DNA from: a virus
Taxonomy: Duplodnaviria > Heunggongvirae > Uroviricota > Caudoviricetes
Reading direction: 5' to 3' (one strand)
Virus record (IMG/VR): IMGVR_UViG_2609460344_000011
Span: 1-8,704 of that record
DNA: 8,704 nt
In this document: positions 1-8,186 of the stretch, one piece after another
How the letters are laid out: each line of letters starts with the position of its first letter
How positions within the stretch are numbered: the first letter of the stretch is position 1
The notes under the pieces: model-generated
The model's database searches: none
What the model was told of the DNA's origin: nothing
The model's input: only the letters and a program-made list of their open reading frames with translations
Translations under genes and position numbers: made by a program

Positions 1-86
1 TTTCCACCCCTGTACGTCTCACCACCTATATGGTCGTGGAAAGCCTTGGTGGTGAGTTCATTGAATTCAACATAGGGGCTGTCACC

Positions 87-632
87 ATGACTACTCTCCC
101 AACCCAATCTCACCCTGAAATCACGATTATCAATGGTCGCGTTGTCACCACATCTCTTGCAGTAGCTAATTACTTTACTAAACGGCATGAGCGGGTTTTA
201 GATAGAATTAGAAACCTCGAATGTTCCGCTGAATTTACTGAACACAATTTTGTGTTAAGTGAATACACCGACGCATCAGGCCGCAAACTCCCTTGTTACC
301 AAATCACCCGCGACGGTTTTGCGTTTCTTGCCATGGGCTTCACTGGTAAACGTGCTGCCCGGTTCAAAGAGGCATACATAAATGCCTTTAACCAGATGGA
401 AAAACTGCTTTCAAAGCCATCCACGCTGAGCGATGCCGCAGATAACGCCAGCGTGCTTTACTCCCACCTGTCGGTAATCCACAAGGTCTGGCTGCAGCAG
501 CTTTATCCCATGTTGGCAAAAGCCGAATCCCCGCTGGCTGTAAGTCTGTATGACCGCATCAACGACGCGGCGCTACTGGCCAGTCTCATAAATTTGTCGC
601 TGAACCCTTCAGAGGTAAGGGGGCGTAAATGA
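87..632 (+). CDS. Rha-family phage regulatory protein (antirepressor-like)
   Basis: ATG at 87 preceded by GGGG (75-78). The ORF is open from 30, but the N-terminus MTTLPTQSHPEITIINGRVVTTSLAVANYFTKRHERVLDRIRN fits the Rha-domain pattern recalled from memory. Stop TGA 630-632 overlaps the next ATG. Confidence 0.65.
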   Translation: MTTLPTQSHPEITIINGRVVTTSLAVANYFTKRHERVLDRIRNLECSAEFTEHNFVLSEYTDASGRKLPCYQITRDGFAFLAMGFTGKRAARFKEAYINAFNQMEKLLSKPSTLSDAADNASVLYSHLSVIHKVWLQQLYPMLAKAESPLAVSLYDRINDAALLASLINLSLNPSEVRGRK

Positions 633-853
633 TCCGGAATATTTTCAAACGGTTTACCAATCATACTTTCTGTTGTCCTCGTCCGGGTCAGTGGTACACC
701 ACGCCTGCAGGGCATGTTCTACGTGTTAGCCTGGTTGACCGTGAATGTCAGAAGGTGATTTGTGAACCGCTGGGCCGTAATTACCGCGTCAGTATGCCGC
801 TTATAGCCTTTTGCTCCGGAAAAAACATGAAGCATCTCGGAGGTGCTGCATGA
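629..853 (+). CDS. hypothetical small protein (74 aa), translationally coupled between Rha and the O-like gene
   Basis: ATG 629 overlaps the upstream stop (ATGA). Purine-rich SD-like GAGGTAAGGGGG at 611-622. Its stop TGA 851-853 overlaps the next start at 850. No recognisable domain. Confidence 0.45.
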   Translation: MIRNIFKRFTNHTFCCPRPGQWYTTPAGHVLRVSLVDRECQKVICEPLGRNYRVSMPLIAFCSGKNMKHLGGAA

Positions 854-1668
854 GTATGGAGTTGATGGTTAAAGCGATGAAAATTCGAGTGGGAAATCCA
901 TTGCGAAAACTGGTTCTGATTAAGCTGGCTGATAATGCCAGCGATCAGGGTGAGTGCTGGCCCAGCTATCAGCATATCGCTGATCAGTGCGAGATTAGCA
1001 AACGTTCTGTGATGAATCATATTGCGGCCCTCTGTGAGTCCGGGCTGGTAAAAAAAGTCACCCGGAAAGGTGAAAAAGGTAACTCAAGTAATATCTATCT
1101 CCTTCATCTGGATGGTGCAGGAGATTCACTAGGGGGTAGTGCAAATAATTCACTATCTGGTGCAGCAAATTCACCAGGTAGTGCAGGAGTTGCACCAGGG
1201 GGTAGTGCAGGAGATTCACCCAGAACCAGTCACTCTTTTGAACCAGTCAAAGAACCAGTCAATGAACCAATAGCTGTTGGTGAATCTGCTGATGAGTCTG
1301 TGCGAGTTCGTTCAAACCGACCGGAATACTCTCCGGAGTTTGAGCAGGCATGGCTGGCATACCCCAAACGTGCTGGTGGCAATTCAAAATCTGCAGCCTT
1401 CAAAGCCTGGAAAGCCCGTTTGAATGAGGGGGTAAACCCCGAAACCATGCTGGAAGGTGTGAAACGCTACGCGGGCTGGGTATCTGCGATGGGTAACAGC
1501 GGCACACAATTTGTGAAACAGGCTGTCACGTTCTTTGGTCCGGATCGTCATTTCGAAGAATCCTGGGAAGTTCCTGCGGTATCTGCAGCCAGACGCGAGG
1601 ACCCGTACTTCAAAGCCAGTTACGACAACGTGGACTACAGCCAGATCCCGGAAGGATTCAGGGGGTGA
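850..1668 (+). CDS. lambdoid replication initiator O-like protein (N-terminal HTH domain, Gly/Ser/Ala linker, C-terminal domain)
   Basis: ATG 850 with GGAGG at 838-842. N-terminal segment LRKLVLIKLADNASDQGECWPSYQHIADQCEISKRSVMNHIAALCESGLV matches the helix-turn-helix typical of phage O-type replication protein N-termini. A low-complexity linker follows, encoded by iteron-like DNA repeats. Confidence 0.65.
   Translation: MSMELMVKAMKIRVGNPLRKLVLIKLADNASDQGECWPSYQHIADQCEISKRSVMNHIAALCESGLVKKVTRKGEKGNSSNIYLLHLDGAGDSLGGSANNSLSGAANSPGSAGVAPGGSAGDSPRTSHSFEPVKEPVNEPIAVGESADESVRVRSNRPEYSPEFEQAWLAYPKRAGGNSKSAAFKAWKARLNEGVNPETMLEGVKRYAGWVSAMGNSGTQFVKQAVTFFGPDRHFEESWEVPAVSAARREDPYFKASYDNVDYSQIPEGFRG
1111..1221. 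repeat. iteron-like direct repeats inside the O-like gene (candidate replication origin)
   Basis: GTGCAGGAGATTCAC occurs at 1115-1129 and 1205-1219. GGGGGTAGTGCA occurs at 1132-1143 and 1198-1209. ATTCAC recurs at 1124, 1148, 1169 and 1214, giving a roughly 21-24 bp period. Further degenerate copies (GGTAGTGCAGGAG at 1177) lie between. Confidence 0.4.
1240..1271. repeat. short tandem repeat GAACCAGTCAA x2 plus a partial copy, encoding EPVKEPVNEP
   Basis: GAACCAGTCAA at 1240-1250 and 1252-1262, then GAACCAA at 1265-1271, immediately 3' of the iteron-like block. Confidence 0.4.
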
Positions 1669-1670
1669 TC

Positions 1671-2159
1671 ATGAGTCTTTTGAATGAAGTTCAGAAATTC
1701 ATTGAAGCCCATCCGGGGTGTACTTCCGGAGACATTGCGGATGCTTTTGCAGGTTACTCACGGCAGCGCGTTCTGCAGTCAGCAAGCAAGTTACGTCAGA
1801 GTGGGCGTGTGGCTCACCGTTGTGAAGGAGATACACGCAGACATTTCCCGCGCCTGACTGAGAGAGCACAGGAGCCGGAACCACAACCAGTTCGTGAAAC
1901 CAGACCTGTGCGCAATTTCTGTGTCGGCACTAACGACCCGCAGGTGATTTTGTGCCTGACTCGCCAGGCGGAAGAACTGGAGTCCAGGGGCTTATTCCGT
2001 CGAGCTGCAACGGTGTGGATGGAGGCATTCCGTGAAAGCCACTCCCAGCCAGAACGAAACAATTTTCTGGCGCATCGTGAGCGGTGCTTACGGAAAAGCA
2101 GCAAGCGCGCTGCATCGGGTGAAGAGTGGTATCTGTCAGGGAATTACGTGGGGGCTTAA
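1671..2159 (+). CDS. PerC-like transcriptional regulator domain protein with N-terminal winged-helix-like region
   Basis: ATG 1671 with AGGGGG at 1659-1664; the upstream stop TGA 1666-1668 lies just before it. C-terminal segment ESRGLFRRAATVWMEAFRESHSQPERNNFLAHRERCLRK fits the recalled PerC/Pch signature (GLxRRAAxxW ... RRxxC). The N-terminal half looks like a small wHTH. Confidence 0.5.
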   Translation: MSLLNEVQKFIEAHPGCTSGDIADAFAGYSRQRVLQSASKLRQSGRVAHRCEGDTRRHFPRLTERAQEPEPQPVRETRPVRNFCVGTNDPQVILCLTRQAEELESRGLFRRAATVWMEAFRESHSQPERNNFLAHRERCLRKSSKRAASGEEWYLSGNYVGA

Positions 2160-2812
2160 TGAGTAATAAATATTGCCAGGCGCTGGTGGAGCTGCGGAAC
2201 AAACCAGCCCATGAACTGAAGGAAGTGGGCGATCAGTGGCGCACGCCGGACAACATTTTCTGGGGAATTAACACCCTGTTTGGCCCGTTTGTTCTGGATC
2301 TGTTCACTGATGGTGATAACGCCAAATGTGCCGCTTATTACACTGCGGAAGACAACGCGCTGGCGCATGACTGGTCTGAACGTCTTGCGGAGCTTAAAGG
2401 TGCTGCCTTTGGTAATCCCCCGTACAGCCGCGCCAGTCAGCATGAGGGGCAATACATCACCGGCATGCGTTACATCATGAAACATGCCAGTGCCATGCGT
2501 GATAAAGGCGGGCGCTATGTTTTCCTGATCAAAGCTGCCACCAGCGAAGTGTGGTGGCCGGAAGATGCAGATCATATTGCTTTTATTCGCGGGCGTATTG
2601 GTTTTGAACTGCCTGCCTGGTTTATCCCGAAAGACGAAAAGCAGGTGCCAACAGGTGCTTTCTTCGCTGGTGCTATTGCTGTTTTCGACAAGACCTGGAA
2701 GGGACCGGCAATCAGCTACATAGGGCGCGATGAACTTGAGGCATGTGGTGAGGCGTTTCTGGCGCAGGTTCGCCAGCAGGCGGAAAAACTGGTCAGGGAG
2801 ATGGCGGCATGA
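2159..2812 (+). CDS. phage Dam-family N6-adenine DNA methyltransferase
   Basis: ATG 2159 overlaps the upstream stop TAA 2157-2159, with a G-run at 2150-2154. Contains the GNPPY catalytic-type motif (N/DPPY class) and overall resemblance to phage N-6-adenine methyltransferases. Confidence 0.75.
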   Translation: MSNKYCQALVELRNKPAHELKEVGDQWRTPDNIFWGINTLFGPFVLDLFTDGDNAKCAAYYTAEDNALAHDWSERLAELKGAAFGNPPYSRASQHEGQYITGMRYIMKHASAMRDKGGRYVFLIKAATSEVWWPEDADHIAFIRGRIGFELPAWFIPKDEKQVPTGAFFAGAIAVFDKTWKGPAISYIGRDELEACGEAFLAQVRQQAEKLVREMAA

Positions 2813-3135
2813 CGACATTAACTCAATGCCAGCAGCAGGTGCTGGATATGCTGATTTCTTATCAGAAAGAACGTGGCTTCCCGCCAACCAATCAGGAGGT
2901 GGCAACCATGCTGGGATACCGTTCGGTGAATGCAGCGGTGGAGCATCTTCGCGCACTGGAGAAAAAAGGTGTCATCACGATAAAGCGTGGCGTGGCCCGG
3001 GGTATCACTCTTCATACCGCGGTGAAGGACGACGACAGCGAGGCGGTCGGGATTATCCGCGCCCTGCTTGCCGGTGAGGCAAACGCCAGGCTGCGTGCAG
3101 CCCACTGGTTACATGAGAGGGGCCTGAAAGTATGA
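2809..3135 (+). CDS. LexA N-terminal DNA-binding domain homologue lacking the S24 peptidase domain
   Basis: ATG 2809 overlaps the upstream stop (ATGA). Residues 1-68 align without gaps to the E. coli LexA N-terminal domain as recalled: LTxxQQxVxDxI ... GxPPTxxExAxxLGxRSxNAAxEHLxALxxKGVIxI ... RGIxL. The protein ends at 108 aa with no catalytic Ser/Lys domain. Confidence 0.75.
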   Translation: MTTLTQCQQQVLDMLISYQKERGFPPTNQEVATMLGYRSVNAAVEHLRALEKKGVITIKRGVARGITLHTAVKDDDSEAVGIIRALLAGEANARLRAAHWLHERGLKV

Positions 3136-5502: not shown

Positions 5503-5519
5503 TTTTGTGGAGAAAGTTG

Positions 5520-5891
5520 ATGCGTGATATTCAAATGGTTCTTGAACGTTGGGGGGCATGGGTGGCAAATAATCACGAGGATGTGGAATGGTCATCTGTT
5601 GCTGCAGGTTTTAAGGGATTAATTCCTTCGAAAGTAAAATCCCGCCCGCAATGTAGCGATGACGATGGCCTGATCATTAGCTCTGCGATGACAGTTCTTA
5701 AGAAAAAGGAACCGTATCAATACGAATTACTGGAAATGTATTATGTGTATGGGGTTACATTACGGGTGTTGGGGGTAAAACTGGGGATATCACTTAATCA
5801 GGTTGTTATCAGACTGCAGAAAGCTGAAGGGTTTATTGACGGTTGTCTGGCAATGTTGGGGGTATCTTTAGAAATTGATTGTTACATATAG
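5520..5891 (+). CDS. Q-like late-gene antiterminator (small, about 123 aa, quuD-type)
   Basis: ATG 5520 with GGAGA at 5509-5513. The size, the position after rusA/DUF968 and before the tRNA cluster, and the N-terminal MRDIQMVLERWGAW match my recollection of small Q antiterminators of E. coli prophages. Family assignment is from memory, not a search. Confidence 0.55.
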   Translation: MRDIQMVLERWGAWVANNHEDVEWSSVAAGFKGLIPSKVKSRPQCSDDDGLIISSAMTVLKKKEPYQYELLEMYYVYGVTLRVLGVKLGISLNQVVIRLQKAEGFIDGCLAMLGVSLEIDCYI

Positions 5892-5930: not shown

Positions 5931-5963
5931 AACCTCCTGATGATACCTGTTCATTGGGAGGTT
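5931..5963 (+). promoter_or_regulatory. inverted repeat AACCTCC-N19-GGAGGTT that can sequester the Shine-Dalgarno of the downstream gene
   Basis: AACCTCC (5931-5937) is the exact reverse complement of GGAGGTT (5957-5963). The right arm contains the SD (GGGAGG 5956-5961) of the ATG at 5967. Candidate -10 hexamers TATTAT/TATAAC at 5925-5933. Confidence 0.35.
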
Positions 5964-5966
5964 ATT

Positions 5967-6584
5967 ATGGATAAAAATGTAGAGCATGTATTAGTTGATG
6001 CAATTGAAAATAAGCAATCTTTAACAGTCGTTTACTTAGGAGGGAGCCAGCCCGGAACATTAAGGAATATTTCTCCGATTAGTATAAATGGGGATAAATT
6101 GCGGGCAAGATGCCATAGTTCTGGAGCAGTAAAGGTTTTCAATCTTGGGAAAATACAGTTACCCAGTGACTCCTGCGCGGTATCTATGCACTATGGAGAT
6201 TTAGAAGTTAAAGCTTATGAGACGATGCAGAGCGTAAATGACAACTTTCATGCCCTTTATCCTGAAGGACGATGGGGTGTTGATTTTAATGAGCATCGCT
6301 TTGCTTTATTTGATTTTTTTAAAAACGGGAAACGAAAAAAAACGGCATTTATGGCAATTGAGTTCAGGGAAAGAGATGAAGAGAAAATAATAACAGGTGT
6401 AACAATTGATATTGGTATATCTGGAACAGTGATTTCTGAGAAGTCCCGAATCCCAAAAAGACGACCATGGGTAGTGGTTGGTCCCGAACACGGAGAATAC
6501 AGTACTTATTCAACTTTGGACAAGGCTGCTACAGCGTTTTTTGAGAGGCTTTCGTTGATAGCATCCGGCCTGGAAGATAATTGA
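5967..6584 (+). CDS. hypothetical protein (205 aa), AT-rich accessory gene of unknown function
   Basis: ATG 5967 with a perfect GGGAGG SD at 5956-5961; an alternative ATG at 5940 has no SD. No family recognised. Markedly AT-rich relative to the upstream genes (by eye). Hand count: 11 of 12 Arg codons are AGA/AGG/CGA/CGG and 6 of 14 Ile codons are ATA. Confidence 0.6.
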   Translation: MDKNVEHVLVDAIENKQSLTVVYLGGSQPGTLRNISPISINGDKLRARCHSSGAVKVFNLGKIQLPSDSCAVSMHYGDLEVKAYETMQSVNDNFHALYPEGRWGVDFNEHRFALFDFFKNGKRKKTAFMAIEFRERDEEKIITGVTIDIGISGTVISEKSRIPKRRPWVVVGPEHGEYSTYSTLDKAATAFFERLSLIASGLEDN

Positions 6585-6862: not shown

Positions 6863-7060
6863 ATGCTGAAACAGCAGGATATGACAGAAACCGCCAGAGT
6901 TGTGTTTGATGAATTAAGCGTTACCGAACCGGCGACAGTCGGGGAGATTGCGCAGAATACTTACCTTTCACGCGAACGCTGCCAGTTAATACTGACCCAG
7001 CTTGTTATGGCGGGTCTGGCAGACTATCAGTGCGGTTGTTACAGACGCCTTCAGTCCTGA
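6863..7060 (+). CDS. hypothetical small protein (65 aa), possible winged-helix (PapI/FaeA-like) DNA-binding protein
   Basis: ATG 6863 with a weak purine-rich stretch GGAAAGGG upstream. A helix-turn-helix-like segment ATVGEIAQNTYLSRERCQLILTQLVMAGL. Bracketed by intrinsic terminators. Assignment is tentative. Confidence 0.4.
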   Translation: MLKQQDMTETARVVFDELSVTEPATVGEIAQNTYLSRERCQLILTQLVMAGLADYQCGCYRRLQS

Positions 7061-7194: not shown

Positions 7195-7908
7195 ATGGCT
7201 GTTGTCTGTTCAGTTATCATGGTTTGCTCCCCAATTAATATTTTTCTTGAAAAGGATACGTTGTCACTTAAGCCAGGCTCAGTTGTTCTGGCCACCAAAT
7301 GCATCAGGGAGCTTTTCCTTATGCATTATGGCAAAGTTAAAATTGTCGATATAAGCGAATCCGTCGTAAGTCAATATCTGGAAAGTCAGCATAAGCTGAC
7401 GAGGACTCGTCTGACTGACATTCCGCTTTACCTGTTGCTGGAACCCAACAATCCTGCGTTGGCTGCGGCTTTAATTACCAGCCAGGGATTTTCCGGAGAG
7501 GCCACGGATATGTTTCTTATGATGGCCTGCCTGTCTCTGTTTGAAACAGATGAACGGATGTCATTGTTTTTAAGTGGATGTTTATCCAGCATAAGTGCCA
7601 AAGTCAGGGCGATAATTCAGACAGATATATCAGCAAGCTGGACGCTTGGTGCGATTGCTCTACAGTTGCATATGAGTGAGAGTTTGTTAAAGACAAAACT
7701 GAAAAATGAAGGGGGCATGTTCAGTCGCTTGTTGCTGGAAGAGCGGATGCGTGTTGCTGTAAATATGTTATGTTCCCGGCATGGATATGGACAGGCTATA
7801 GCAGAAAAATGCGGTTATTCAAGCAGGTCCTACTTTATTTCTGTATTTCACCGCTATTATGGCTTCCCGCCAGACAGATATGTATCCAGGCAAGGGCTTG
7901 ATTATTGA
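7195..7908 (+). CDS. AraC-family transcriptional regulator (AppY/GadX/YdeO/Rns-like)
   Basis: C-terminal AraC-type HTH (WTLGAIALQLHMSESLLKTKLKNEGGMFSRLLLEERMRVAVNMLCSRHGYGQAIAEKCGYSSRSYFISVFHRYYGFPP). N-terminus MAVVCSVIMVC resembles the AppY-like subgroup as recalled. AT-rich, with 5 AGG, 1 AGA and 5 ATA codons by hand count. No clear SD; an alternative start is ATG 7219. Confidence 0.7.
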   Translation: MAVVCSVIMVCSPINIFLEKDTLSLKPGSVVLATKCIRELFLMHYGKVKIVDISESVVSQYLESQHKLTRTRLTDIPLYLLLEPNNPALAAALITSQGFSGEATDMFLMMACLSLFETDERMSLFLSGCLSSISAKVRAIIQTDISASWTLGAIALQLHMSESLLKTKLKNEGGMFSRLLLEERMRVAVNMLCSRHGYGQAIAEKCGYSSRSYFISVFHRYYGFPPDRYVSRQGLDY

Positions 7909-7936: not shown

Positions 7937-8012
7937 GGCCCTTTAGCTCAGTGGTGAGAGCGAGCGACTCATAATCGCCAGGTCGCTGGTTCAAATCCAG
8001 CAAGGGCCACCA
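7937..8012 (+). tRNA. tRNA with anticodon CAU, most likely tRNA-Ile2 (lysidine, reads AUA); generic annotation would be tRNA-Met
   Basis: Hand-folded cloverleaf: acceptor GGCCCTT/AAGGGCC, D-arm GCTC/GAGC, anticodon loop CTCATAA, T-arm GCTGG/CCAGC with TTCAAAT loop, encoded CCA. Close to E. coli ileX as recalled. Confidence 0.8.
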
Positions 8013-8019
8013 TCACATA

Positions 8020-8096
8020 CCGCCATTAGCTCATCAGGAAAGAGCGCCAGCCTTCGAAGCTGGCTGCGCGGGGTTCAAGTCCCCGATGGCGGTCCA
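8020..8096 (+). tRNA. tRNA-Arg, anticodon UCG (reads CGA/CGG)
   Basis: Acceptor CCGCCAT/ATGGCGG, D-arm GCTC/GAGC, anticodon stem CCAGC/GCTGG with loop CTTCGAA, T-arm CGGGG/CCCCG with TTCAAGT loop, encoded CCA. The C1-G72 first pair is unusual but the fold is complete. Confidence 0.75.
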
Positions 8097-8109
8097 TTAT
8101 CTGCATCAT

Positions 8110-8186
8110 GCGTTGTTAGCTCAGCCGGACAGAGCAATTGCCTTCTAAGCAATCGGTCACTGGTTCGAATCCAGTACAACGCGCCA
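8110..8186 (+). tRNA. tRNA-Arg, anticodon UCU (reads AGA/AGG), argU-like
   Basis: Acceptor GCGTTGT/ACAACGC, D-arm GCTC/GAGC, anticodon stem ATTGC/GCAAT with loop CTTCTAA, T-arm ACTGG/CCAGT with TTCGAAT loop, encoded CCA. Confidence 0.8.

Follow-up and report, generated by a model that had tools for sequence, protein, structure and literature searches.

The question raised by this locus is what a lambdoid phage carries directly behind its replication initiator, in the slot where a helicase loader (lambda P or a DnaC-like protein) is usually found. The 8,704-nucleotide stretch of DNA analysed here (the window) comes from E. coli strain TOE17, where it belongs to a lambdoid prophage and is matched at 100% identity. 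The prophage is integrated beside mlrA, which adjoins the integration site outside the window (864-2872 of locus L001). The sequence-only reading had placed a winged-helix protein with a PerC signature immediately after an O-like gene, and this gene order holds, with the initiator at 850-1668 followed by the ORF at 1671-2159. It had further stated that the window shows no helicase-loader gene and suggested, since PerC/Pch proteins activate virulence loci, that the prophage may supply a trans-acting host-gene regulator from its early operon. The features on which the argument depends are collected in Table 1.

Table 1. Features of the window around the yfdN orthologue, given as window positions.
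Feature	Position	Strand	Basis
Rha-family regulator	30-632	+	
74-aa ORF	between the Rha-family gene and the initiator	+	
Replication initiator (O analogue)	850-1668	+	HTH_36 1.8e-11; PHROG 270 1.1e-88; PGAP agrees on the CDS
About 5 iteron-like repeats of ~21-24 bp, core GTGCAnnAnnTTCAC, putative origin	1113-1222	.	TRF and sequence reading
2.5 copies of GAACCAGTCAAA adjoining the iterons	1240-1269	.	TRF, period 12, 94% matches
Initiator C-terminal tail SYDNVDYSQIPEGFRG	1618-1665	+	Kept at the protein level across unrelated C-terminal domains
Shine-Dalgarno AGGGGG of yfdN, inside the last initiator codons	1660-1665	+	Sequence reading
yfdN orthologue, wHTH + PerC-family protein, 162 aa	1671-2159	+	ORF, profile and identity matches
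N-terminal winged-helix domain, aa 1-51	1671-1823	+	Predicted
Disordered, variable Pro/Glu-rich linker, aa 52-89	1824-1937	+	pLDDT <50 at residues 52-84
PerC-like three-helix (TPR-like) domain, aa 90-148, core LExRGLxRRAATVWxxAF...R..CL	1938-2114	+	
C-terminal tail with conserved W-Y-L-S/A-G-N/R-Y/F-V-G motif	2115-2156	+	Alignments; pLDDT <50
Phage Dam-type N6-adenine methyltransferase	2159-2812	+	PF05869 9.7e-46; start overlaps the yfdN stop (TAATG)
LexA-DNA-binding-domain-only protein, 108 aa	2809-3135	+	PF01726 2.9e-19
RusA, KilA-N protein, DUF968/HNH protein	between the LexA-domain gene and Q	+	
Antiterminator Q	5505-5891	+	

With 95% identity to K-12 YfdN (b2357) across all 162 aa, the ORF at 1671-2159 is by sequence an orthologue of that protein, and as such is already known and annotated rather than a discovery. 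RefSeq labels the gene "yfdN: PerC family transcriptional regulator", the K-12 protein is named 'uncharacterized protein YfdN', and a literature search found no functional study of YfdN. A sequence search located the yfdN region in 2,734 of 5,426 complete E. coli genomes, with K-12, O104:H4 and UTI89 among the hosts. At 96-98% DNA identity it is also present in the Shigella phages SfV (orf40), SfII (gp42) and SfIV, in mEp460 (gp44), 1720a-02 and several Stx2 phages, and in others. Two phenotypes have been connected with the gene. Over-expression of a 2.5-kb UTI89 prophage fragment carrying 'yfdN2' and its neighbours (4,997,073-4,999,597) causes filamentation (PMC6206680), and the ASKA yfdN clone gives a glycogen-deficient phenotype (PMC2853380); both were set aside as pointing to no specific mechanism.

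PGAP places the start codon at GTG 1665, giving a protein of 164 aa. We prefer ATG 1671, because most homologues have MSL... N-termini and because this codon is properly spaced from its Shine-Dalgarno sequence, lying 5 nt past it, with the initiator stop codon TGA (1666-1668) in between. In the homologues the junction between the initiator and the YfdN-type gene is either an ATGA overlap of 4 nt or a 2-nt spacer. Mosaic breakpoints are seen ~75 nt ahead of the end of the initiator gene and at the stop codon of yfdN; like the conserved junction, they speak for a link of yfdN to the replication machinery.

The predicted structure of the N-terminus has the three helices and beta-hairpin wing of a winged helix, and the PerC-like part is recognised by Pfam PF06069 with 34.5 bits (E 2.4e-8) against a gathering cut-off of 22.6. 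This match covers residues 98-149 and positions 5-56 of the 90 in the profile. Both halves of the domain assignment made in the sequence-only reading are therefore upheld by fold prediction and by the Pfam search. PHROG 1324, 'transcriptional activator', also matches YfdN at 1.6e-77, an alignment of YfdN-type proteins with short PerC-like proteins by hhalign reaches 99.7% probability (E 1.2e-26), and all 29 of the diverged two-domain homologues (24-48% identity) match the PerC profile. Judged by these profiles, the PerC signature of the ORF is genuine, and like other members of the family the gene is carried on horizontally acquired elements, here a lambdoid prophage and isolated phages. A sequence search of the PDB with the YfdN profile gave nothing useful, and a locus search with an alignment of a nine-sequence YfdN subset returned 7 loci.

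YfdN does not, however, have the size of PerC or PchABC, which are single-domain proteins of ~90-105 aa. Searches of 1.84 billion representative proteins show that the two-domain architecture forms a separate family of ~140-165 aa, which can be followed down to ~24-27% identity. Within it Leu103, Arg111 and Ala112 are invariant, and Ala100, Arg136 and Cys139 are found in at least 90% of the sequences. The linker of ~35 aa differs between homologues in both length and sequence. In the alignments the tail motif W-Y-L-A/S-G-N/R-Y/F-x-G is confined to the YfdN type and is lacking from proteins of the PerC/Pch type.

If YfdN behaved as PerC and PchABC do, it would activate LEE1/ler or other host loci in trans. 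PerC and the Pch proteins act by relieving the silencing of LEE1 by H-NS/StpA/Hha/YdgT (PMC4764244). YfdN passes the Pfam PerC threshold, and Uhlich et al., who counted K-12 yfdN among the PerC homologues, took the precaution of deleting it from the strain that carried their ler-lacZ reporter (PMC5931665). In that strain, from which yfdN had been removed as "the K12 unique PerC homologue", PchA, PchB and PchC alone activated the reporter (PMC5931665). Activation of ler is, however, a property of the group 1 Pch proteins only, with no effect of PchD and a less than 2-fold effect of PchE (PMC5931665; PMC6265319). The PerC-like protein EcCIMP1_025, encoded by a phage-inducible chromosomal island (PICI), represses LEE1, and its PICI homologues from EDL933 and CFT073 were reported to be without effect (PMC11773190). 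PerC family membership does not, then, predict LEE1 activation. YfdN also departs from PerC and Pch in architecture, through its additional winged helix and its different C-terminal tail, and no promoter of its own was detected. The gene is moreover carried by about half of the E. coli genomes searched and by the Shigella phages, and most such hosts have no LEE; the locus is absent from K-12, O104:H4, UTI89 and the hosts of the Shigella phages. Our literature search found no report of LEE1/ler activation by YfdN. It would seem very unlikely that YfdN is a virulence activator, and the proposal that it activates virulence loci finds no support, given that homologues outside group 1 are inert or repress and that K-12 and Shigella phages commonly carry yfdN.

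No sigma-70-like promoter was found between 600 and 3200, so expression of yfdN should depend on the repressor-controlled early operon, and since its translation is coupled to that of the initiator gene we infer that YfdN is made when this operon is derepressed. It would accordingly be a product of induction and the lytic phase rather than of the lysogen, and would not be a lysogenic-conversion factor.

The initiator begins with a winged helix-turn-helix domain, followed by a low-complexity linker and a helical C-terminal domain, and closes with a conserved tail. It matches PHROG 270, labelled 'replication initiation protein', and DnaD_N matches it weakly (3.6e-5). The C-terminal part matches phrog_1701, 'DnaD-like helicase loader', at 7.6e-33 as well as PHROGs labelled primosomal protein; a Pfam search with this C-terminal domain alone gave no match, and a PDB sequence search with the initiator gave nothing useful. 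The low-complexity linker is encoded by the iteron-like repeats, with the unit GGT(A)GTGCAGGAGATTCACC, which TRF reports as arrays at 1135-1186 and 1160-1220. In phage cdtI the array has 3 extra units (22 aa). These repeats within the initiator gene are probably the origin, much as the lambda origin is located inside gene O.

No loader accompanies this initiator. None of the ORFs in the window has a Pfam or PHROG match to a loader or helicase, and tblastn of the window with phage IstB/DnaC-like and DnaB-like proteins gave a best E of 0.077, which bears out the earlier statement that the window has no loader. A wider search, through 26.6 kb of the prophage, the complete mEp460 genome and 184 related loci (1.19 Mb), also found no loader or helicase gene. 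YfdN itself has no loader or lambda P signature in Pfam, PHROG or NCBIfam, its predicted fold has no loader-like match and it lacks an AAA+ module. The structure prediction thus gave no loader-like match by which the protein would be re-identified as replication-associated.

Nor is YfdN obligatory beside the initiator, so that none of the marks of a loader, whether sequence signature, fold or constant presence, is found in it. Of 79 initiators of the Phg_2220_C type, 69 end in the GFR tail, 40 of these being followed by YfdN and 29 not; nine have neither tail nor YfdN, and one has YfdN without the tail. The 29 represent a dozen or so lineages in which a methyltransferase or another gene comes next and the 4-nt overlap is kept. 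Natural knock-outs of yfdN also occur. Phage cdtI has the same initiator and an in-frame deletion of 396 bp (window 1748-2142) that leaves a remnant of 30 codons (L091 2869-2919); the same deletion is found in the IMG/VR loci L014 and L015. IS629 splits the gene in the Stx2a phage Stx2a_WGPS2, and among the knock-out loci, which include L014, L015 and L019, one larger deletion also takes part of dam. Phage cdtI reportedly grows productively. YfdN-type genes are found away from initiators as well: in L095 one lies between a type I restriction-modification cassette and Q, in L099 one follows alpA within a PICI-like element, and in L101 one follows recT. The absence of YfdN from 29 of 69 GFR-tailed modules, the cdtI deletion and the IS629 insertion identify it, on gene distribution, as an optional accessory gene of a helicase-less replication module and not as an analogue of the loader. 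Prophages without yfdN may nevertheless be less fit.

The description of this gene as occupying the loader slot is right as to position, as sister phages hold IstB/DnaC-like and DnaB-like genes there, but does not extend to YfdN standing in for the loader, since it is optional and its fold is not loader-like. A rival proposal is that YfdN is an adaptor that would bridge the initiator, through its IPxGFRG tail, to host DnaB/DnaC and so be a functional analogue of lambda P. The gene is translationally coupled behind initiators with three unrelated types of C-terminal domain in most contexts, sister phages place their loader and helicase genes in this same slot, and YfdN follows 40 of the 69 initiators with a GFR tail compared with 1 of the 10 without. 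TPR-like domains, moreover, are frequent binders of C-terminal peptides. Set against the optional presence of the gene and its fold, we consider an adaptor of this kind improbable. The YfdN-type gene nonetheless keeps its tight position behind the initiator in homologues down to 24% identity, and this coupled position together with the association with the tail leaves room for a replication-linked role; a non-essential, modulating role in replication is possible.

The initiator tails themselves vary in an informative way. The motif D-Y/T-S/T-x-I/L-P-x-G-F-R-G/S ends 14 diverse initiators, and the initiators ahead of YfdN-type genes carry C-terminal domains of at least three unrelated kinds (window type, SfII type, Phg_2220_C) and all finish in ...D-Y-S-x-I-P-x-G-F-R-G. 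The codons of the tail differ synonymously, which indicates conservation at the protein level. We rejected the explanation that the GFRG tail is kept merely as a Shine-Dalgarno sequence or as a recombination junction at the DNA level, because of this codon variation and because the motif persists before methyltransferase genes. Sister initiators, whose C-terminal domain shares 56% identity with that of the window type, end instead in ...DYGQSDCNW (SGFSEQDYGQSDCNW). IstB/DnaC-like (PF01695) and DnaB-like genes follow the initiators with this second tail in L185 and in 63 of 63 IMG/VR loci, a count to be read with the tail itself having been among the search patterns. Initiators ending in ...DYSQIPxGFRG were never found with phage loader or helicase genes among the loci surveyed for both kinds of tail (L003-L009, L092-L104 and L105-L253). 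In this group of phages the type of tail tracks the presence or absence of phage-encoded loader and helicase genes, and we regard this as the most useful new lead from the analysis. It is most likely, on these sequence comparisons, that host DnaB and DnaC serve this phage lineage, recruited by the C-terminal domain of the initiator and its DYSQIPxGFRG tail.

The tails may be helicase-recruitment peptides. Taken to its full extent this would have the GFRG tail dock host DnaB/DnaC, the DYGQSDCNW tail dock the DnaC-/DnaB-like protein of the phage, and YfdN act as a replication-coupled modulator. YfdN could then use its TPR-like or winged-helix domain to contact either the tail or the origin, and would link the firing of the origin to de-silencing of the nucleoid. 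We think this combined scheme doubtful; were it true, the PerC fold would gain a role in the replication modules of phages and PICIs in place of virulence regulation.

A further alternative is that YfdN is an anti-activator of the ANR type, whose helical hairpin would bind and damp AraC-family regulators or H-NS in the manner of Aar. Residues 96-129 match the NCBIfam family ANR_neg_reg (NF033650) weakly, with an E of 3.9e-4, and ANR-like behaviour was proposed for the PerC-like repressor of EcCIMP1 in the study describing it (PMC11773190). The same prophage encodes a YdeO/GadX-like AraC protein at 7195-7908 that could be the target. The score of 20.2 bits is, however, below the family cut-off of 32, so that YfdN does not qualify as a member of NF033650, and ANR proteins are small, consist of a single domain and have no winged helix. 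Many phages with yfdN, for example mEp460, moreover lack the AraC-like gene, which is a variable insert. An ANR-like function for YfdN therefore appears unlikely. As a source of trans-acting control over host genes, the AraC-family gene is a stronger candidate than yfdN.

The reading that we favour, at a probability of roughly 0.5, is that YfdN is an accessory DNA-binding modulator of the early operon. The gene lies second in the replication and early-right block of lambdoid phages of the SfV/mEp460/CPS-53 type, and YfdN would be produced by translational coupling once the early operon fires. Its predicted N-terminal winged helix would bind DNA, and by analogy with PerC and Pch its three-helix domain would modulate nucleoid-protein (H-NS/Hha-type) or transcription complexes rather than act as a classical activator. 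YfdN could in this way tune phage gene expression, and incidentally that of the host, during lytic development, while the initiator would recruit host DnaB and DnaC for helicase loading.

Several other genes of the window deserve mention. The slot after the YfdN-type gene holds a methyltransferase of the Dam (PF05869), MT-A70 (PF05063) or C5 (PF00145) type, sometimes two of them, or none (window 2159-2812; L006-L009, L097, L102, L104), and is a hot spot for orphan methyltransferases. Control of the downstream methyltransferase by YfdN was considered and rejected, as the methyltransferase is often missing and also directly follows initiators without YfdN. The 108-aa LexA-domain protein lacks the S24 self-cleavage domain and is kept just upstream of rusA in all related phages; it could act at SOS boxes as a LexA mimic that cannot be cleaved.

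Downstream of Q, the region at 5940-6584 encodes an uncharacterised protein of 214 aa (PHROG 8498, unknown function) with a faint match to the WYL domain (E 0.0096), and 6863-7060 an uncharacterised protein of 65 aa with a weak winged-helix (TrmB) match. The best matches of the AraC-family regulator that follows are YdeO (4e-31) and GadX (1.2e-24), neither of which comes near its family cut-off, and it resembles the prophage-encoded regulators of acid resistance and T3SS, Psr and PatE. Between this gene and the lysis region are three tRNA genes (7937-8186, anticodons CAT, TCG and TCT), the first of which is called tRNA-Met by ARAGORN and tRNA-Ile by PGAP. We take these to be the trio usual upstream of stx in Stx phages. 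No stx gene follows them here; they are followed by iraM and a SASA esterase gene (L001).

As the finding re-identifies an annotated gene, its main value is one of correction: a match to Pfam PerC does not justify the label "virulence activator". Lambdoid phages that have neither a P nor a DnaC gene represent a normal and widespread type of module, and such host-dependent replication modules carry the wHTH-PerC gene as an optional passenger. As roughly half of the complete genomes of E. coli searched encode YfdN, its function is a real but modest gap in annotation.

Among known systems, the loaders of the lambda P and DnaC/IstB types resemble YfdN only in position, directly after the initiator; YfdN has neither sequence nor fold similarity to them, has no AAA+ module and is optional. 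With the ANR (Aar) family YfdN shares a weak similarity over the first helical hairpin, and both are small helical modulators on mobile elements, although ANR proteins are without the winged helix, third helix and tail of YfdN, and the score of YfdN is below the family cut-off. PerC, from the EPEC plasmid pEAF, and PchA/B/C, from EHEC prophages, share with YfdN the helical core LExKGLYRRAAxxW...R..CL and, like it, are found on horizontally acquired elements. PerC and Pch are, however, single-domain proteins of ~89-104 aa (PMC5293775; PMC5931665), to which YfdN adds the N-terminal winged helix and a long linker, and in alignments the C-terminal tail of the short PerC/Pch-like proteins is unlike the WYLSGNYVG of YfdN. 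Plasmid-borne genes of the PerC family are ~35-40% identical to YfdN over ~60 aa. Nearest of all is K-12 YfdN of CPS-53, which differs from the protein of the window by a handful of substitutions only and shares with it the gene order of initiator (the yfdO remnant), yfdN and methyltransferase (yfdM). In CPS-53 the flanking genes survive as a truncated initiator and methyltransferase remnants, whereas in the window both are intact.
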